From a virus (lineage: Duplodnaviria; Heunggongvirae; Uroviricota; Caudoviricetes), in IMG/VR virus record IMGVR_UViG_2651869696_000012: DNA of 7,668 bases; one strand, 5' to 3'. Shown piece by piece: positions 121 through 7,668 of the stretch (position 1 is its first letter; each line of letters begins with the position of its first letter). Made by a program: the position numbers and the translations under genes. The notes under the pieces were generated by a model, which saw only the letters and a list, made by a program, of their open reading frames with translations, was not told the DNA's origin and did not search any database.

Positions 121-783
121 ATGTCAATTGAGTGTATTTTAATCGGGAAGCATCATGGGGGTTCTGATTACTGGAGAACTCCATTTTTGTTATTTAAGAA
201 CTTACACCGTGAATTTATTTTCAGTCTGGATGGTGCTGCAACTGAGCATGACGCATTGTTGCCACGGTTCACCGATGATATCCACAATCAGTCATGGGTT
301 GGTGAAAGGGTATTCTGTAACCCACCATACAGCGACACTAAAACATTCCTCGTAAAAGCATCTGAAGCAGATTTAGCGGTATTCCTGATGCCCTACCGAC
401 CCCAAACCATATACTGGCTTAAGCACATCTTCACAAACCTGCTTTGCCATGAAATCCGTATTCTTCATCGTGCAGTTAAATGCCTTCCACCAGCAGGGCA
501 TAACGGGCTTGTTATTCGTTCACCGTTTCCAAGTGCAGTCGTTGTTTTTAAAAAAGAACCACGTAAGCATGAAATTACACAGATGGTTTGCTGTGCTGAC
601 ACGCTATTACCGTTAACCATCATTAACCGTGGTGGACTAAGAGGAAGACCCACCATTTACCCACCTGAGACGCTCGACAGCTTCACAAAGCTATACAGGC
701 AAGGAAAACCCATTAAGTGCATTGCAGATGCTCTCAGAATGCCTCTGAGCACGTCATACAGGATTGCTCAAAGGTTGAGCTAA
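121..783 (+). CDS. Phage-type N6-adenine DNA methyltransferase (Dam family) with C-terminal Hin/resolvase-like HTH domain
   Basis: 220-aa ORF. N-terminal part has W-R-T-P near the N-terminus, FSLDGAAT, and the catalytic NPPY tetrapeptide (..VFCNPPYSD..), the pattern I recall for the phage Dam family (Pfam PF05869). The C-terminal ~45 aa (GRPTIYPPETLDSFTKLYRQGKPIKCIADALRMPLSTSYRIAQRL) aligns by eye with the Hin invertase HTH (GRP...G.P...iA......ST.YR). No Shine-Dalgarno before the ATG (AT-rich leader); first in-frame start after the stop at 103-105. Confidence 0.8.
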   Translation: MSIECILIGKHHGGSDYWRTPFLLFKNLHREFIFSLDGAATEHDALLPRFTDDIHNQSWVGERVFCNPPYSDTKTFLVKASEADLAVFLMPYRPQTIYWLKHIFTNLLCHEIRILHRAVKCLPPAGHNGLVIRSPFPSAVVVFKKEPRKHEITQMVCCADTLLPLTIINRGGLRGRPTIYPPETLDSFTKLYRQGKPIKCIADALRMPLSTSYRIAQRLS

Positions 784-1517: not shown

Positions 1518-1532
1518 TAGTTTTCCTTGTAA

Positions 1533-1629
1533 GACGCTTTCAATCGCATTCTGACACAAAAAAGTACCTGACCTTATAGTTGACATGAAGAGGCCGTTTA
1601 ACTCGTTACAGAGCGATTGAAGAAGTCTG
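1533..1629. repeat. R1: ~97-bp element with ~20-bp terminal inverted repeats; copy 1 of 2
   Basis: Left arm gacgctttcaatcgcattctgacacaaaaaa, variable core, right arm gtttaactcgttacagagcgattgaagaagtctg. Left arm and reverse complement of right arm match (GACgCTtTCAATCGC..TCTG vs GACttCTTCAATCGCTCTG). Second copy at 3200-3320. Confidence 0.7.
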
Positions 1630-1844: not shown

Positions 1845-2402
1845 ATGAACGACAGAGAATTTAGAGCGATGCTTCAGGCATCAAGAGAACGCAACAAGCA
1901 CAACTCCTACAGCTACACAGACACCCCCACCAGCCACGAAGTACCCAAGTTCACCAGAGCAGAGCGCAAAGGCATTGACGAAGTAATTCGGGCAATTACA
2001 CCGAGGGAGCGTTATATGTCAATCAGAAAGAGCACGAAGAACACTATCAAGAATTATTTGAATAACTTTGATTCTTACGAGCAGTCATCAAGCTTGCTTG
2101 ATGATATTTTTATTGGATTCTGTAGAAGTGAAGGTCACCCGAAATACAACAAAAAACTATTTTATCTTCTAAAGAATCTTGATGAAATTAACGCAGCCAG
2201 CGTGACAAATTATCTTCAGCGACAAGCAACCAGACTTAGTTATGAATTACCAAGCGATAAATATTGTGCATTGCTTGCTGTAATGTGTGCAAAGCTAATT
2301 GGTGTTGTTGAACATCATGTTGCCGTTGGGAATATTGAACCAATGGAAAACGAGCAACCAGATTTCGAGTTTGACCCGTATTTAGTTACAGAGGAATTTT
2401 AA
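1845..2402 (+). CDS. Hypothetical protein (185 aa) with acidic C-terminal tail
   Basis: ORF with AAGGA 11 nt upstream; first gene of a translationally coupled cassette; C-terminus ..ENEQPDFEFDPYLVTEEF. No family recognised. Confidence 0.7.
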   Translation: MNDREFRAMLQASRERNKHNSYSYTDTPTSHEVPKFTRAERKGIDEVIRAITPRERYMSIRKSTKNTIKNYLNNFDSYEQSSSLLDDIFIGFCRSEGHPKYNKKLFYLLKNLDEINAASVTNYLQRQATRLSYELPSDKYCALLAVMCAKLIGVVEHHVAVGNIEPMENEQPDFEFDPYLVTEEF

Positions 2403-2403
2403 A

Positions 2404-2685
2404 ATGAAAAACAGACACACTCTAACCCGTATTTCAGAGGAAGCTTTTAATGAGCTTACCAGAATTAAACGAGCGACTAACTTGCCTCATCAAACTGTTA
2501 TGCAACTTGCAATTGCTAAAGAAGTTACTGAGTCGGATTTACTTAAATATCCAGTCTCTAAAGGTCGCAAACACATCCGAATTGCTCAGGACGCTTTAGA
2601 TACTTTGAAGGCACTTAACAGCTTTAAAATTGATATTGCCCGACTATTGAGTATTAAGATTCACAAGTTAGCGATGGAGGTTTAA
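2404..2685 (+). CDS. Putative ribbon-helix-helix-like DNA-binding protein (93 aa)
   Basis: GAGG 9 nt upstream (inside the TTACAGAGG motif). N-terminus NRHTLTRISEEAFNELTRIKRATNLPHQTVMQLAIAKEV fits the beta-strand / helix A / turn / helix B pattern of CopG/Arc-type RHH proteins; assignment by pattern only. Confidence 0.65.
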   Translation: MKNRHTLTRISEEAFNELTRIKRATNLPHQTVMQLAIAKEVTESDLLKYPVSKGRKHIRIAQDALDTLKALNSFKIDIARLLSIKIHKLAMEV

Positions 2686-2900
2686 TGCTATGCGTTACCT
2701 TTGAATACCACACGGATAAAATGATTCGCTACATCTCCGACCTCCTGATTAAAGGAAACGGATTCGGTGACATCCATAACTCAAGAGATATTTTCATTAA
2801 AGCCATTGGCCCAAATGAAGTACTGAAAACAGCAGTTACACCGGAATGGTTTGAGCGTCACAAGATTGAATTAGGTTATTGGGGTGAGGAGGTTTTATGA
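2685..2900 (+). CDS. Hypothetical protein (71 aa)
   Basis: Start overlaps upstream stop (TAATG); GGAGG 4 nt upstream; no recognisable family. Confidence 0.6.
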   Translation: MLCVTFEYHTDKMIRYISDLLIKGNGFGDIHNSRDIFIKAIGPNEVLKTAVTPEWFERHKIELGYWGEEVL

Positions 2901-3184
2901 AACCTTGGCATGAAGATGTTAGACGATATTTTACAGAACACCTTATCTATGATGAATCCAGTGATTCCCTGTGCTGGTCTGATGGAGAGTCAGTCACGAT
3001 AAATACCGACGACTACGGCAACAAAACATTTAATATAGGCCGATATACTTTCTACGTGAAATATGTTGTCTGGTTCCTTTATCATGGCTATCAATCCAAT
3101 AAGCAAATTATCCATCGAAATGGTAACAGAGCCGATACCAGACCAAAAAATCTTATGCAAGTCCGAGACTTTAAGAGAAATTAG
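2897..3184 (+). CDS. Small HNH-type (HNH_3-like) endonuclease-fold protein, apparently degenerate
   Basis: ATGA overlap with upstream gene; GAGGAGG 4 nt upstream. Sequence ..IYDESSDSLCW..GNKTF..YTFYVKYVVWFLYHGYQSNKQIIHRNGNRADTRPKNLMQV follows the architecture of phage HNH proteins (YDPETG..W ... HRLAW ... DHIDGN..NN...NLR) but with substitutions at usually conserved positions (HRL to KYV; DNR/NN to DT). Confidence 0.7.
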   Translation: MKPWHEDVRRYFTEHLIYDESSDSLCWSDGESVTINTDDYGNKTFNIGRYTFYVKYVVWFLYHGYQSNKQIIHRNGNRADTRPKNLMQVRDFKRN

Positions 3185-3199
3185 AAAAATAGCTTCTCA

Positions 3200-3320
3200 G
3201 ACGCTCTCAATCGCATTCTAACGCAAAAAACTATCTTATTTTAGGGTGGGTAATACCACTGTACAGGCTACCCCTGAAAAAGACTGTTTAGCTCGTTACA
3301 GAGCGATTGAGGAGGTCTGG
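3200..3320. repeat. R2: ~121-bp element with ~20-bp terminal inverted repeats; copy 2 of 2
   Basis: Left arm gacgctctcaatcgcattctaacgcaaaaaa, 55-bp variable core, right arm gtttagctcgttacagagcgattgaggaggtctgg. Same arms as R1 at 1533-1629 with a different, longer core. Immediately after the cassette stop (3184) and 20 bp before the next gene. Confidence 0.7.
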
Positions 3321-3340: not shown

Positions 3341-3670
3341 ATGAGAGAATTAAACTTTCCATTACAAATTATGCTTGATATCGACACAGTAAATATGATT
3401 CAACACTTCGTTGATTCCGGTGTATCAATTGACTTTGACAGGCTGTTAAAGCTGATGGCTGATAATGCAGAAAACATCTCTGACTTTATTCAGTCGGTGG
3501 AGTTTAACGAGCCTCGAATGATGCTACCAATTACCGACTCAAACATGAAAAGATTGGTTATCGAGCAAACGAACAAACACAGTATTTCCCCAGAGCAATT
3601 TTTGAAAGGTGCTGTGACAATCCTGCACAGCGATAATATTCTGGTGACGGATTCTATGAGGGTTCACTAA
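3341..3670 (+). CDS. Hypothetical acidic protein (109 aa)
   Basis: AAGGAG 10 nt upstream; Asp/Glu-rich; no recognisable family. Confidence 0.7.
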   Translation: MRELNFPLQIMLDIDTVNMIQHFVDSGVSIDFDRLLKLMADNAENISDFIQSVEFNEPRMMLPITDSNMKRLVIEQTNKHSISPEQFLKGAVTILHSDNILVTDSMRVH

Positions 3671-3771: not shown

Positions 3772-3800
3772 TTGACAAATAATCTTAAGCATGACATAAT
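3772..3800 (+). promoter_or_regulatory. Sigma70-like promoter
   Basis: TTGACA (3772-3777), 17-bp spacer, CATAAT (3795-3800); AT-rich upstream. Confidence 0.5.
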
Positions 3801-3806
3801 TGTATA

Positions 3807-3998
3807 TATAGGAAGAGCAATTTTTCCTAAAATCATATTTTCAATAATCCGATGGATGGATATTCTGAGTTGGAAAGGTGCAATGCTTTTCGTCATGGCC
3901 TTTCAGTTTAGTCTGAGAGGTCATCTCAAAAAGTGCTTAATCATTCATTATTGAACCCTTACAGCTTTGCCCTAACTCATGATTAGGGCGTTTTCTTT
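3807..3998 (+). ncRNA. Candidate small RNA (~190 nt) between the promoter and an intrinsic terminator
   Basis: No ORF with an RBS in this unit (the 60-aa track ORF starts inside the -35 box). Internal 12-bp stem ATGGCCTTTCAG (3895-3906) / CTGAGAGGTCAT (3913-3924) with a 6-nt loop; its two non-Watson-Crick positions are G-U wobbles only in the + strand RNA. Ends at the terminator at 3969-3998. Coordinates approximate. Confidence 0.3.
3969..3998 (+). terminator. Intrinsic terminator
   Basis: Stem gccctaa (3969-3975) / ttagggc (3983-3989), 7-nt loop, followed by gTTTTCTTT. Confidence 0.6.
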
Positions 3999-4067: not shown

Positions 4068-4101
4068 AAAGCCCTTCACAGATTATGTTTAGGGCTTTTT
4101 T
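4068..4101 (+). terminator. Second candidate intrinsic terminator
   Basis: aaagccct (4068-4075) / agggcttt (4091-4098) with a 15-nt loop, followed by a T run to 4101. Loop is large, so lower confidence. Confidence 0.45.
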
Positions 4102-4218
4102 CAGCTTTTAAAAAGCATACTTGGCAAACGCCTTTTAAGTCTCTTCTAAGTTCGTAGGCTGTCAGGTGTGCTTTTTAAAAACTGAAACATAAATTATCTT
4201 AGAAGAGGAAAAATAATA

Positions 4219-4923
4219 ATGTCTATCCGTGATGAACATGAAATGATTATCGAAAACAAACCAAGTGCACTTGATATTCACGAATTAAGTTTGCGTGAAT
4301 CTTTTGATAGAGCTTGGCGGGAATCACACGAAGTAAATAAAGGTCCATATATTCCACCAGAACCACTCGAGATTCCAAGAGTTGAAATTGATTTTTCGAT
4401 GAATGAGGAATGTGAGCTTGATTTGAAACTGAAGCTGCAACGCCGATATTTCCAAGCTATTAAAGACTCTCAAGAAGCAATGAGAAGTGTTTACGAGAAA
4501 ATTCAGTCCAAGCTTGAAGACGAAATCGACGAAATGGCTATTTTGATGGAGCTTCAAACCAATTCTTATGCTTATTTCTCTCGACTAGACCGTGACGGTT
4601 GGGGGTATGACCCTGTAGAGATTGGTAAAGTGATTGCAGATTTACCAGAAGGTCAAAGGGTTATTCGTACGGAAAGGGCTATCAGAGCGCCACATCAACT
4701 GTCTCTAATTGTTGCTGATAAATCACAAGCTGAGCTTGAAGAAATTGCCAAAGAGAAACTGATGAAAGCAAGAGAAAATGAGATTAATTTGCTGAAATCA
4801 AGACTGGCTAAGCTGATTAGTGACCATCAAGCGCTGGCTAAGGAGTACCGTCAAGAGTTGGCACAGATTATCAGCTTCAATGATTTTCTGAGTGTTCCAC
4901 GAGAATTTAGCAAGGCTGTTTAA
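4219..4923 (+). CDS. Hypothetical glutamate-rich, probably helical/coiled-coil protein (234 aa)
   Basis: GAGG 10 nt upstream; long charged helical-looking stretches (..AELEEIAKEKLMKARENEINLLKSRLAKLISDHQALAKEYRQELAQ..); no recognisable family. Confidence 0.75.
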   Translation: MSIRDEHEMIIENKPSALDIHELSLRESFDRAWRESHEVNKGPYIPPEPLEIPRVEIDFSMNEECELDLKLKLQRRYFQAIKDSQEAMRSVYEKIQSKLEDEIDEMAILMELQTNSYAYFSRLDRDGWGYDPVEIGKVIADLPEGQRVIRTERAIRAPHQLSLIVADKSQAELEEIAKEKLMKARENEINLLKSRLAKLISDHQALAKEYRQELAQIISFNDFLSVPREFSKAV

Positions 4924-4945
4924 TTATGCATATGTGAGGTGATGA

Positions 4946-5161
4946 ATGATTGATTTAACAGAACGCTATGAAACTATTAAGTCTGTTTGTGAAAACTTAA
5001 AGTTACAAACTAAGCCAGCCTTAAGAATTAAAACCAAACATCAAATTATCACCTCACGCAAACCAAAAACACGCAAGATTCCAAAGTGGTGTATCGACCG
5101 TATCCCTTCCGATGCTCAAATTATAGGTGAAACGGAACTACATTATCTTGTCAGGCATTAA
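4946..5161 (+). CDS. Hypothetical small basic protein (71 aa)
   Basis: TGAGG 6 nt upstream; Lys/Arg-rich (..RIKTKHQIITSRKPKTRKIPKW..); follows the upstream gene after 22 bp. Confidence 0.6.
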   Translation: MIDLTERYETIKSVCENLKLQTKPALRIKTKHQIITSRKPKTRKIPKWCIDRIPSDAQIIGETELHYLVRH

Positions 5162-5210
5162 AAAAGATTGGTTGGGTGTATGAGATAGGTTCTATCGAAT
5201 CTATAACACG

Positions 5211-5252
5211 GGGAGAGATTATCGATATTATTCGGTAGTTTCTCCCTTTTTT
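5211..5252 (+). terminator. Candidate intrinsic terminator after the 71-aa gene
   Basis: Stem gggagaga (5211-5218) / tttctccc (5239-5246), one G-U, 20-nt loop, followed by TTTTTT (5247-5252). Confidence 0.5.
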
Positions 5253-5260
5253 GTATGTGT

Positions 5261-5330
5261 GCTACGTGAAATCTTCTGAACAGATATACCCACCAAAAAT
5301 TATTTTTTACGTAGCTCACGCTTAACAGAG
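5261..5330. repeat. Repeat A: 70-bp element directly upstream of the tape-measure-like gene; copy 1 of 2
   Basis: gctacgtgaaatcttctgaacagatatacccaccaaaaattattttttacgtagctcacgcttaacagag. Contains inverted repeat GCTACGT...ACGTAGC and ends in TTAACAGAG, followed by the SD GAGGTGA. Second copy at 7406-7475. Confidence 0.7.
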
Positions 5331-5344
5331 GTGAAATATGAACA

Positions 5345-7393
5345 ATGGCACAATTTAAAGTTGATAGTTTTATCGTTGAGCTAGGCTTCAATGAAAACGT
5401 TATTAAGAGCTTGCAAAGAGTTGAAAAGGCAGCTTTGCAGTCAGCACAAAGAATTGAAAAGAACCTTAACAAAGGCTTCAAGATTAATACCAAGCAACTT
5501 GACAGCAATCTGACAAGTTCTTTGAAGTCAATGGAAGGAAAAATTAATAAGACCTTTGACCGTCTGGAAGCTAGAGCAAGAAACACAAAAGTTTTCCGTT
5601 TCACAAGTCAGGTTAACGATGCTGTTAATCCTCCAAAACAACCGAGACAGCCACGAATTAGCGGCAACAGAGCAATCACAGCAGCTTATTCAGCTAATAT
5701 GTCTAAGTTAAAGGGCTTTGACCCTATTTTGCAGAAATACATCAAATCTCAGTTTTACGGGCTATCTGCTAAAGCCGGTTCAATGGATTCTTCAAAATTC
5801 AATGAGAAGCTGTCTCAGTTAAATGCTTCAGTCAGAGAAGCAATTGCTAAAGCTAAAGGTCATACATCCACCAGCATTAATGGTGACAGAGCAGCTAGCA
5901 GCCTTGATAACCTGTCTTCGGCAGCAGTCAAAACAGCAGGTGCATTTATCTCAATGCAGGCTGTATTAGCCAGTTATCAGAAGATTATGGAAGTTGGTTT
6001 ACAGCGTGCAAGTGCTGAGCGTTCAATTGATTTCGTATTTGATAAAGATGCAGGTCAGGTAAAAGAGTTCACAAAGTCATTAGCTCAAACAACGGGTTTA
6101 GATATCGCTGAACTGCAATCACAGTTTGCTGGTTTTGGTGCTTCAGCTAAAGAATCTATGGGTATTCAGGGTTCTGAAGAACTTTTTAAAAATATGATTG
6201 GCTATTCTCGTTTAATGGGTCGAAGTGAAGAAGAGATTAAGCGAGCATTAACAGCGCTATCGCAGATGGCTGGTAAGGGTCAGGTGATGGCTGAGGAGCT
6301 GAAAGGTCAATTAGCTGAAGCTGTTCCTGGTATGGTTCAGGTATTCGCTAAAGCAACCGGAAAGACTGAACAGGAATTATTTGATGCCATGAAGAAGGGG
6401 GCTTTAAAATCTGCCGATACTCTTCAGAAGGTCACTCAGGAACTGAATAAACAAATCACCGCTAAAGGTGGCTGGAAAGCCATTTCAGAAAGTACACAGG
6501 CACAACTAGGGAACTTGAAAAACTCTTGGAATACCACGCTTGACAGTATTTTCAGAGGTTCTGAAGATGGTTTACAGGACTTCACAAGAAGCTTAACAAC
6601 GCTTTTAAATAGTCTTGGTGGGAGTGGTAAAAGTCTTGGTGAATCTCTTGGTAGTCTCATGACTTCTATGTCAAGTGGTGTGGATTCATTGACTGATATC
6701 AGCTACAGGGTAAGAGCATTCTTTGATGAGGTGACATTAGCTTACCGTGGTTTAACCGATGAACAAAAGAAAGTAGTTGATGCTTTAGGTTCTGGCTTGA
6801 TTAATAGTTTAAAAGTCTTGGCTGGTGTTATTGCTGTGAATAAAGTTGTTGGTGTAACCAGAAGTATTTACGGGCTTATGACTGCTATCACAAGATTAGG
6901 TCAGGTTGCTGATACTACAGCGGATAACGTGAATAGAAAGAATGGGAAACCATCAAGACTGAATCTTGGGAATATGCTATTAGCTGGTAGCGCTCTCTAT
7001 GCAGGTTATGAAAGATTAGCCTCTACACCTGAACGAATGGAAGCACAAGCTAAATTACCAGAGTTAGCTAAAGAATCTGGACTTAAGCCAGTATTTACTA
7101 TGGACGATGTGAAAGGTTGGTTTAATAGTGCAGCTATGAATCTTGCTAACTTCCAGCATCCAGAATTAAACAACATTAAGCAAGATGCGGCATTAACGAA
7201 TACGGATATCCAAAGCCTGAGAGATGAAATTAGTGCTTTGAGCAAACGTATTCAGGAGCCTGTGAAAGTTTCACTTGGTGGTGAAGTTGCTATTAAACCA
7301 GATGAAACCAGCTTTATGACATTTAACAGCAGTCTGTACGACCAATACGCAGAAGCTACGCTATTAAGTTCATCATTCCCAGAAGATGATTGA
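5345..7393 (+). CDS. Tape-measure-domain protein (682 aa)
   Basis: Long ORF with GAGGTGA 11 nt upstream. Central region ..RALTALSQMAGKGQVMAEELKGQLAEAVPGMVQVFAKATGKTEQELFDAMKKGALKSADTLQKV.. matches, as I recall it, the conserved tape-measure domain of lambda-H-like proteins (TIGR02675-type). Gly/Ser/Ala/Lys-rich with hydrophobic segments (..LAGVIAVNKVVGV..). Short for a classical tape measure and lacks adjacent tail genes. Confidence 0.8.
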   Translation: MAQFKVDSFIVELGFNENVIKSLQRVEKAALQSAQRIEKNLNKGFKINTKQLDSNLTSSLKSMEGKINKTFDRLEARARNTKVFRFTSQVNDAVNPPKQPRQPRISGNRAITAAYSANMSKLKGFDPILQKYIKSQFYGLSAKAGSMDSSKFNEKLSQLNASVREAIAKAKGHTSTSINGDRAASSLDNLSSAAVKTAGAFISMQAVLASYQKIMEVGLQRASAERSIDFVFDKDAGQVKEFTKSLAQTTGLDIAELQSQFAGFGASAKESMGIQGSEELFKNMIGYSRLMGRSEEEIKRALTALSQMAGKGQVMAEELKGQLAEAVPGMVQVFAKATGKTEQELFDAMKKGALKSADTLQKVTQELNKQITAKGGWKAISESTQAQLGNLKNSWNTTLDSIFRGSEDGLQDFTRSLTTLLNSLGGSGKSLGESLGSLMTSMSSGVDSLTDISYRVRAFFDEVTLAYRGLTDEQKKVVDALGSGLINSLKVLAGVIAVNKVVGVTRSIYGLMTAITRLGQVADTTADNVNRKNGKPSRLNLGNMLLAGSALYAGYERLASTPERMEAQAKLPELAKESGLKPVFTMDDVKGWFNSAAMNLANFQHPELNNIKQDAALTNTDIQSLRDEISALSKRIQEPVKVSLGGEVAIKPDETSFMTFNSSLYDQYAEATLLSSSFPEDD

Positions 7394-7405
7394 TAATAGT
7401 CGAAT

Positions 7406-7475
7406 GCTACGTGAAATCTCTTGAACAGATATACCCACTGAAAAATAGAATTTACGTACAACACGCTTAACAGAG
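7406..7475. repeat. Repeat B: second copy of the 70-bp element, directly downstream of the tape-measure-like gene
   Basis: gctacgtgaaatctcttgaacagatatacccactgaaaaatagaatttacgtacaacacgcttaacagag; about 85% identical to copy A by eye; same length and same TTAACAGAG 3' end. Confidence 0.7.
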
Positions 7476-7533: not shown

Positions 7534-7668
7534 AATCAAAGGAGAATTTAATGATTTACACTAATCAGCTTCGGGTGATGCTGCCAACTTACTGATTTAG
7601 TGTATGATGGTGTTTTTGAGGTGCTCCAGTGGCTTCTGTTTCTATCAGCTGTCCCTCCTGTTCAGCTA

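Follow-up and report, generated by a model that had tools for sequence, protein, structure and literature searches.

Felix O1-like tape measure and baseplate hub genes in an excising chromosomal island of Escherichia coli, a probable satellite-like element

The tape measure locus

The IMG/VR virus record IMGVR_UViG_2651869696_000012 is a stretch of 7,668 nucleotides (nt), referred to below as the window, which represents the entire 7,668-bp contig JHSV01000132.1 and breaks at a repeat, the insertion sequence IS1. It harbours a gene for a tail tape measure protein (TMP) of 682 amino acids (aa), followed by the first codons of a gene for a Dit-like baseplate hub protein. The 682-aa open reading frame (ORF) does not belong to a phage but to an integrative, excising island of ~11.4 kb. 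The features at this end of the window, with coordinates referring to the window throughout, are:

5210-5247, plus strand: intrinsic terminator isolating the TMP transcription unit, with a 16-pair stem and T-run, kept in all islands
5260-5330, plus strand: promoter/operator element D1, copy 1, a 71-nt direct repeat 5' of the TMP gene
5345-7393, plus strand: TMP gene, 682 aa, ATG start, from the ORF listing
7405-7475, plus strand: D1, copy 2, 5' of the Dit-like gene and 85% identical to copy 1
7550-7573, plus strand: start of the Dit-like baseplate hub gene, which IS1 cuts after 8 codons (MIYTNQLR), recognised as the N-terminus of the intact Dit in relatives
7574-7668, no strand assigned: IS1 terminal inverted repeat and start of insA, 100% identical to IS1, up to the contig end

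The 682-aa ORF is a genuine homologue of phage tail tape measure proteins. It matches Pfam TMP_3 (PF20155; aa 234-400, E = 3.6e-19, 69.7 bits against a cutoff of 41) and TIGR02675 tape_meas_nterm (E = 1.4e-13, 50.9 bits against a cutoff of 21.35), and these above-threshold profile matches place it within the TMP family. Among the PHROGs it matches phrog_4036 'tail length tape measure protein' (E = 1.1e-83) and 10 further TMP families. In a tblastn search of 50,697 phage records the TMPs of Felixounavirus proved collinear with the island protein over its full length; with gp73 of the Felixounavirus wV8, identity is 28.9% at 100% query coverage (E = 5e-72). The N-terminal ~45 aa are 68-77% identical to the phage protein (75% at the DNA level), a central block is ~65% identical, and the extreme C-terminus carries a motif, LLSSS[FY]PE[DE][DE], common to island and phage, the rest of the body showing 12-45% identity. 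A single hydrophobic segment at ~aa 480-505 is likewise present in the phage TMP, and the two segments align. Plausibly, the termini make contacts in the assembly of the tail.

At 90% identity the TMP family falls into more than 120 clusters, its length is essentially fixed, and the gene evolves with a ratio of non-synonymous to synonymous substitutions (dN/dS) of 0.34. Its C-terminal third falls into three allele groups with 31-49% identity between groups, and in 9 of 10 islands these are inherited together with the C-terminal alleles of Dit. An obligatory co-adaptation of the two C-terminal parts was also considered, but the island L016 is a recombinant in this respect and the pair is best described as usually co-inherited.

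Several of these results bear on an earlier note on the window, which was made from the letters of the sequence. Its reading of a tape-measure domain in the 682-aa protein agrees with all three kinds of profile search (Pfam, TIGR02675 and PHROGs). The non-structural upstream context that it described is equally real, with small genes without structural matches in Pfam or PHROGs, the terminator at 5210-5247 and the 71-nt repeat. Its statement that no tail genes follow within the window, by contrast, has to be given up, as the Dit-like gene starts at 7550 and is cut by IS1 after codon 8. Nor is the protein, which the note had called short for a tape measure of a long-tailed phage, short for its own lineage: the Felixounavirus homologue has 742 aa and the island TMPs range from 679 to 725 aa, i.e. 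they are 17-63 aa shorter.

In relatives of the window the Dit-like gene is intact and is found directly 3' of the TMP gene, while the 5' neighbours of the latter, p234 and p71b, match no family of tail assembly chaperones (TAC). The intact protein, annotated in RefSeq as 'phage baseplate protein', matches Pfam Dit_like (PF21821, E = 4e-20) and, over its full length, phrog_3721 (E = 4e-136). According to tblastn it shares ~81% aa identity with the Felixounavirus gene that lies directly 3' of the phage TMP gene. Identity to the phage is 80-90% over the N-terminal ~190 aa, the C-terminal ~70 aa being specific to the island. In the island copy L001, the DNA of the Dit N-domain is 90% identical to wV8 and just 71-84% identical to other islands; since it is thus nearer to the phage than to its own relatives, a recent recombination between phage and island at Dit is indicated by this comparison. 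Judged by these similarities, TMP and Dit both derive from the tail module of a virulent Felix O1-like myovirus (Felixounavirus). In the window itself the functional hub protein has probably been lost and the TMP is intact; a sister contig of the same island variant (L012) likewise breaks at the IS1 site.

The D1 element consists of an inverted repeat, GCTACGTGAAA...TTTTACGTAGC, which flanks a promoter-like TGAACA-N18-TAnnnT. It is found 5' of Dit in 8 of 8 islands and 5' of TMP in 5 of 8, and is always situated past the terminator. Because D1 precedes both genes, after a terminator, TMP and Dit are separate but co-regulated units. The possibility that D1 is a borrowed phage promoter was also examined and dropped, there being no significant match in wV8.

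A discrete island at three chromosomal sites

Matches to the island were found in 528 of 5426 complete E. coli genomes (~10%), in the chromosome without exception, and the hosts of the family include Escherichia, Shigella and Citrobacter. The copy L006 from Shigella is rearranged. A scan with one genome per species gave 3 loci, the peptide seeds being too specific. Megablast of the window against phage and plasmid collections returned only the IS1 end, identical copies of which occur in phage P1 and in thousands of plasmids; IMG/VR yielded 4 matches, all of them integrated or partial copies.

Boundaries drawn against the empty sites of K-12 give an island size of 11.1-11.5 kb, with junction overlaps of 7-13 bp. 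Three att sites are occupied, one within yecE, one at the start codon of tonB and one near ymdF. Each goes with a different integrase allele (30-37% identity between alleles), and the attB, attL, attR and attP sequences could be reconstructed. A sister assembly locates the sequence of the window inside the chromosomal yecE.

In intact relatives the left end carries a small serine recombinase and/or a Dam methyltransferase, or else a 221-aa ORFan; ~1 kb of repeat-rich non-coding DNA follows, and then p185, p93, p71, a gene for an HNH endonuclease and p109. The right part consists of ~0.5 kb of non-coding DNA, p234, a further p71, TMP and the Dit-like gene. A large serine recombinase on the opposite strand, with the domains Resolvase, Recombinase and Zn_ribbon_recom and encoded outside the window, ends the island, beyond which host genes resume; all five chromosomal copies inspected in intact E. 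coli relatives end with Dit and this recombinase. The intact islands inspected are devoid of genes for capsid, terminase, portal, tube, sheath and fibres. TMP and Dit are the sole structural genes of the island, and they are likewise the only ones with protein-level matches in the complete genome of wV8.

Apart from the variable left-end cargo, gene order is identical at the three att sites, and all island genes are under purifying selection, with dN/dS of 0.17-0.34 for all 10 genes among copies that differ by a synonymous divergence (dS) of 0.1-1.3. The island also excises precisely, as a circle. The metagenome scaffold L089 from ENA, 11,429 nt in length, is circular with a 55-nt terminal overlap and contains no host DNA; at its junction the right end of the island, the 13-bp core CAATGACCCTTGA and the left end form the attP that is to be expected from the L001 attL and attR and the K-12 attB. 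A contig from an independent sample (L088, Logan) is permuted, devoid of host DNA, and has an attP-type junction joining the ends of an L011-type island.

At the tonB site the core CAATGACCCTTGA includes the tonB start codon (17422-17434 and 28880-28892 in L001; 1588-1600 in the K-12 sequence L014). Insertion here regenerates the tonB ORF and shifts its native upstream region by 11.4 kb, island DNA taking its place. The expression of TonB, and with it sensitivity to phages and colicins, might be altered by an island at this site.

Other genes of the island

Upstream of the TMP transcription unit the window contains the following genes:

121-783, plus strand: DNA N6-adenine methyltransferase with a C-terminal helix-turn-helix (HTH), a variable left-end cargo (Pfam Dam PF05869, E = 7e-14; HTH_7, E = 1.6e-3)
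1845-3184, plus strand: operon p185-p93-p71a-HNH endonuclease, with ORFs overlapping or tightly packed
3341-3670, plus strand: p109, an island-specific ORFan, dN/dS 0.28
4219-5161, plus strand: p234 (helical, coiled-coil-like) and p71b (basic), directly 5' of the TMP gene

The Dam gene is absent from the variants L001 and L089, where the 221-aa ORFan takes its place; elsewhere the left-end cargo slot is filled by a DNA invertase and/or this ORFan. The methyltransferase is of unusual architecture, in that its match to the Pfam and TIGR models is confined to their N-terminal half (profile positions 9-82 of 169), its score stays below the NCBIfam cutoff and it ends in a resolvase-type HTH. PADLOC labels it an orphan methyltransferase, the only known defence protein that this tool recognised in the island.

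The HNH endonuclease matches HNH_3 (E = 1.8e-8), and the genes of its operon have dN/dS values of 0.19-0.29; in L010 (9580-9864) an HNH allele of only 34% identity occupies the same position. The p185 family comprises 1091 clusters in Escherichia, Shigella and Salmonella, all of them annotated as hypothetical. That of p234, with 40 matches, is limited to these islands, and a 29% identical allele in L009 (11138-11848), annotated in RefSeq as 'transposase', is found at the same position. The AlphaFold (AF2) model of p234 has long helices at 60-114 and 170-224, but with a pLDDT of 56 it is, like that of p185 (pLDDT 41), too poor for fold searching, and phmmer searches with both proteins against the PDB sequences gave only noise. 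Searches of Pfam, PHROGs, NCBIfam and PADLOC assigned no island proteins other than Dam, HNH, TMP and Dit, and p109 in particular had zero family matches in these four collections. A role of p234 and p71b as tail assembly chaperones was considered and rejected, given that they show no similarity to gp71/gp72 of wV8, to Phage_TAC_15 or to other TAC families.

Divergent from the p185 operon, the minus strand contains a small ORF (1341-1517) of 58-81 aa with a strongly hydrophobic helix, GGGVGLIAGLILRYILVRVLVVF. The source assemblies call it as a gene, as do the annotations of L002 and L011, and it could encode a small membrane protein or a toxin-like peptide.

Non-coding elements

The non-coding features outside the TMP and Dit transcription units are:

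3-60, no strand assigned: phage-like element of ~58 nt with a hairpin, 5' of Dam, 86% identical to wV8 23865-23920
784-1844, no strand assigned: non-coding region of ~1 kb with repeat D7 and a 95-nt tandem repeat (1049-1220)
1526-1629, plus strand: regulatory repeat D2/D4, copy 1, 5' of the p185 operon; the copies are 80-86% identical
3193-3319: D2/D4, copy 2, 5' of p109
3772-3990, plus strand: candidate small RNA, with a promoter at 3772-3800 and an intrinsic terminator at 3968-3990
4099-4187, plus strand: hairpin with 28-nt arms, inverted repeat I1, nearly invariant across 6 divergent islands

The loop of the hairpin (4141-4155) is the perfect 15-nt complement of wV8 43229-43243, located 14-28 nt before the ATG of the phage TMP gene. 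The 15-nt target is invariant in 21 Felixounavirus-like contigs, and among 2000 shuffled loops only 12 (0.6%) had a match of at least 15 nt anywhere in the phage. The hairpin may accordingly serve as an antisense repressor of the translation of the phage's own TMP. The loop is complementary also to 10 nt of the ribosome-binding site (RBS) of p234 (4198-4207). In wV8, same-sense copies resembling the loop are present at 42368-42384 and just before the start of Dit. The sole Rfam match, a miRNA at the hairpin, was rejected as spurious.

The candidate small RNA has a near-consensus sigma-70 promoter (TTGACA-17-CATAAT, 11 of 12 positions, extended -10 TG), followed ~170 nt on by the terminator. 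Its core, GAAAGGTGCAATGCTTTTCG, is kept in 6 islands, and no Rfam family matched positions 3772-3990.

The ~58-nt element at the left end is the sole DNA match to wV8 besides TMP and Dit. Its counterpart in the phage is the intergenic region between the divergent genes gp45 and gp46, with which it shares an exact core of 25 nt, and it is kept in each Dam-bearing island examined (L009, L010, L012 and L008); it may have been borrowed from the phage as a regulatory site or be the scar of a recombination. Within the ~1 kb region that follows Dam, the 95-nt tandem repeat is present in 1.8 copies (85% match), and a further pair of 33-nt repeats lies within 815-1016. The equivalent gene-poor stretch of L001 measures ~2.5 kb. 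Such a repeat-rich region could contain an origin, iterons or regulatory RNAs. Each copy of D2/D4 includes a promoter-like site (in copy 1 CTGACA-18-TATAGT at 1551-1580), and D2/D4 together with D1 suggest two co-regulated gene sets, possibly an early/late cascade.

A probable satellite-like element and its rivals

We consider it reasonably probable that the island is a satellite, or a satellite-like anti-phage element, which employs its own TMP and Dit on Felixounavirus. Infection by such a phage would lead to excision of the island via the large serine recombinase, and TMP and Dit would be expressed from their common D1 promoter/operator. Because the phage-like ends of TMP and the near-phage N-domain of Dit have been kept, both proteins should plug into tail parts made by the phage, i.e. 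its baseplates, tubes and sheaths. Tape measures scale at roughly 1.5 Å per residue, so that a deficit of 60 aa predicts tails ~6-9 nm shorter than those of the phage. Such chimeric tails would be assembled at the expense of normal phage tails, and the hairpin antisense to the ribosome-binding region of the phage TMP may in addition repress the phage protein. The strategy would be analogous to the chimeric tails that the PLE satellites of Vibrio cholerae build from parts of the phage ICP1.

Alternatively, the island could serve defence against phages alone. TMP and Dit would then be dominant-negative 'poison subunits' that enter the assembly of Felixounavirus tails and abort it, and the island itself would never be packaged but would spread by integrase-mediated excision together with generalized transduction or by other means. 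A subunit of this kind would need termini and an N-domain that suit the phage next to divergent bodies, as are found here, an antisense hairpin against the start region of the phage TMP would fit interference, packaging, capsid and replication genes are not recognisable in the island, and interference with tail assembly, as by Tai, Tab and Rta, is an established strategy of defence (PMC11364771; Rta in PMC12987554). A poison subunit, however, would have no need for a full-length TMP of 680-725 aa under selection and of conserved length, for a complete Dit and for co-regulated promoters. Furthermore, the precise circle and the swapping of integrases and att sites indicate selection for horizontal mobility, and in PLE, the sole precedent that has been tested, the TMP serves transmission of the satellite (PMC12987554). 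We therefore regard exclusive defence as rather unlikely, albeit as the main rival, and note that the roles of defence and satellite are not mutually exclusive. Much less probable is a function of the TMP outside of virions, in an integrative element that has nothing to do with phage parasitism. The protein might then compete with incoming TMPs for factors of host entry and so exclude superinfection at the inner membrane, or it might act in secretion or as a ruler. Where PMC11364771 refers to work on HK97, some phage TMPs are described as engaging inner-membrane or periplasmic host factors during injection, and the hydrophobic segment shared with the phage TMP would suit such an activity; but this would leave unexplained why precisely the TMP termini are conserved and why the island also carries Dit, which is regulated together with TMP and is up to 90% identical to the phage in its DNA, and the island is without secretion-system genes.

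Least probable by far, in our view, is that a prophage, or a Felix O1-like phage that had integrated, is decaying here and that the TMP is a functionless leftover of it. The plain RefSeq names 'tape measure protein' and 'phage baseplate protein' would suggest as much, as would the IS1 in Dit of the window and the rearranged Shigella copy. Felixounaviruses, however, are virulent and possess no integration module; relaxed selection, pseudogenes and erosion, by which a cryptic or decaying prophage would be recognised, are not what the island displays, given its identical gene order at three att sites, the low dN/dS of each gene at dS of up to 1.3 and a TMP length kept across more than 120 clusters. 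Precise excision in itself excludes a decaying remnant. Of the three options that the earlier note had offered for the 682-aa protein, the rearranged prophage remnant thus finds no support, nor does the ejection protein of a short-tailed phage, given the collinearity over 100% of the protein with the TMP of the contractile-tailed Felixounavirus, and the third, a repurposed tape-measure-domain protein, comes closest. The flanking sequence in intact relatives does not refute the note, as a single further tail gene (Dit-like) follows there, then the recombinase and the end of the island. A discrete mobile island with two tail genes from a virulent phage had not been foreseen.

Several points weigh against the satellite reading. 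A replication initiator, a small terminase, a capsid-size determinant and a TAC were not recognised with Pfam, PHROGs, PADLOC, NCBIfam and phmmer against PDB, and Rep, primase and helicase families had no matches among the island proteins in Pfam, PHROGs and NCBIfam; the structure models of p234 and p185 are unusable here. An 11-kb genome in a head with a capacity of 86 kb would need capsid remodelling or packaging as a concatemer, and the island has no evident gene for the one or the other. What the circular contigs prove is an attP junction, not replication or dependence on a helper, and the IMG/VR matches are integrated copies beside other prophages, not free particles. The 15-nt complementarity to the phage could instead be due to a role in cis, in the regulation of p234, since the loop is also complementary to the RBS of that gene, which resembles the RBS of the phage TMP. 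Finally, the copy in the window may be defective, since IS1 inactivates its Dit.

Significance

Tape measure proteins of satellites, and the chimeric tails that they produce, were first demonstrated in 2025-26 for the PLE of V. cholerae; beyond this there is only a descriptive preprint on the EPIP satellites of Mycolicibacterium. A satellite with its own tape measure is thus already established elsewhere, and what the present analysis adds is an island that is apparently undescribed and common in E. coli; our literature search found no paper that describes it or that links Felix O1-like phages to a satellite. If the proposed role is correct, a second and unrelated-looking system in E. coli would make the swapping of the tail core a general strategy of satellites, and E. 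coli with its Felix O1-like coliphages would provide a tractable model for the selective incorporation of TMP and hub proteins. Felixounaviruses are used in biocontrol, typing and therapy of Salmonella and E. coli, and an island in about one of ten E. coli genomes that interfered with tail assembly would affect the prediction of host ranges. As its genes are now annotated as ordinary prophage 'tape measure' and 'baseplate' genes, prophage and satellite finders may misclassify the island.

Comparison with known systems

The island possesses several of the attributes by which satellites are recognised, i.e. an integrase of its own, discrete boundaries, specific att sites, small size, an incomplete set of virion and lysis genes and a circular excised form. 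For its induction, packaging and transfer by a helper the signs are indirect, namely the recent recombination with Felixounavirus and the non-coding DNA of phage origin. On the other hand, no island protein matches the markers of PICI, cf-PICI or P4 elements (tyrosine integrase, AlpA, Pri-Rep or primase, packaging and capsid proteins, psu/delta/sid) in Pfam, PHROGs or NCBIfam.

In the presumed donor, the Felixounavirus tail module (TAC gp71/72, TMP gp73 and Dit-like gp74 in wV8), TMP and Dit are likewise adjacent, in the same order and from the same Pfam families. The island differs in that TAC, tube, sheath, the remaining baseplate, fibre and head genes are missing, and in that its TMP and Dit stand under their own D1, which is absent from the phage.

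Tai systems (PMC11364771) and the Rta protein of PLE11 (PMC12987554) interfere with tail assembly with the outcome that would also be predicted for the island, namely fewer functional tails of the helper, but their proteins are not homologues of TMP or Dit. The EPIPs (bioRxiv Dec 2025, PMC12822802) resemble the island in having a serine integrase and a TMP of their own, and the tail length of their particles is altered. By their description they stand apart, since their gene set extends to a small terminase, head-tail connectors, a scaffold and a major capsid protein; moreover, their helper is a temperate siphovirus prophage, and tails become longer, not shorter.

The closest parallel is provided by the PLEs of V. 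cholerae, which parasitise the lytic myovirus ICP1 as satellites and integrate by means of a large serine recombinase (Mathur, Boyd et al., Nature 2026, PMC12987554). Their TMP, TAC and, in some variants, BhuB are 20%, 20% and 41% identical to those of ICP1, which they replace in chimeric tails that are 10 nm shorter, at a difference of 95 aa between the TMPs; transduction of PLE requires tmp, and the small RNA SviR of PLE binds the TAC and BhuB transcripts of ICP1 (PMC12987554). Beyond PLE, the tmp genes listed in that study are predictions only, located in PLE-like elements of Vibrio and in some cf-PICIs (PMC12987554). With PLE the island has in common a large serine recombinase, a small size without capsid, terminase and sheath genes, a helper from a virulent, contractile-tailed lineage (for the E. 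coli island suggested by homology alone), a diverged and shorter TMP (20% identity in PLE, 29% in the island) together with a Dit_like hub, and an RNA aimed at tail transcripts of the helper, which is known in the case of SviR and a candidate here. BhuB of ICP1 (Gp78) falls into Pfam Dit_like (PF21821, E = 1.2e-17), the same family as the island Dit. RefSeq calls this protein 'endolysin'; its Dit_like assignment corresponds to the BhuB of the PLE study. The sheath, baseplate wedge, neck protein and NrdD of ICP1 are annotated as similar to those of Felix O1/phiEa21-4 (Ounavirinae; L091/L092, 35.5-62 kb), and the helpers of PLE and of the E. coli island may thus share a distantly related tail architecture.

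The differences are nevertheless considerable. PLEs have Vibrio hosts, other att sites and a size of ~18 kb, as compared with ~11.4 kb. All PLEs contain a tmp-tac cluster and only some of them a gene of the BhuB type, whereas the island combines tmp with a Dit_like gene and has no tac recognisable with Pfam, PHROGs or Phage_TAC_15. The island Dit, at ~81% aa identity, is far nearer to its presumed helper than is BhuB at 41%, in keeping with recent recombination. Lastly, the strategy of PLE has been shown by experiment, whereas the E. coli island is known from sequence alone. The E. coli island nonetheless carries the same pair of TMP and hub that PLE11 substitutes, with the difference that the pair stems from a phage lineage infecting its own host, and its integrase is of the same class. 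We tentatively propose, as a possibility that falls somewhat short of an even chance, that these islands are widespread, hitherto unrecognised and minimalist satellites of Felix O1-like phages in Escherichia, Shigella and Citrobacter, which swap the TMP and the Dit-like hub, maybe silence the phage TMP by an antisense hairpin, and represent an independent and possibly convergent counterpart of PLE and ICP1.

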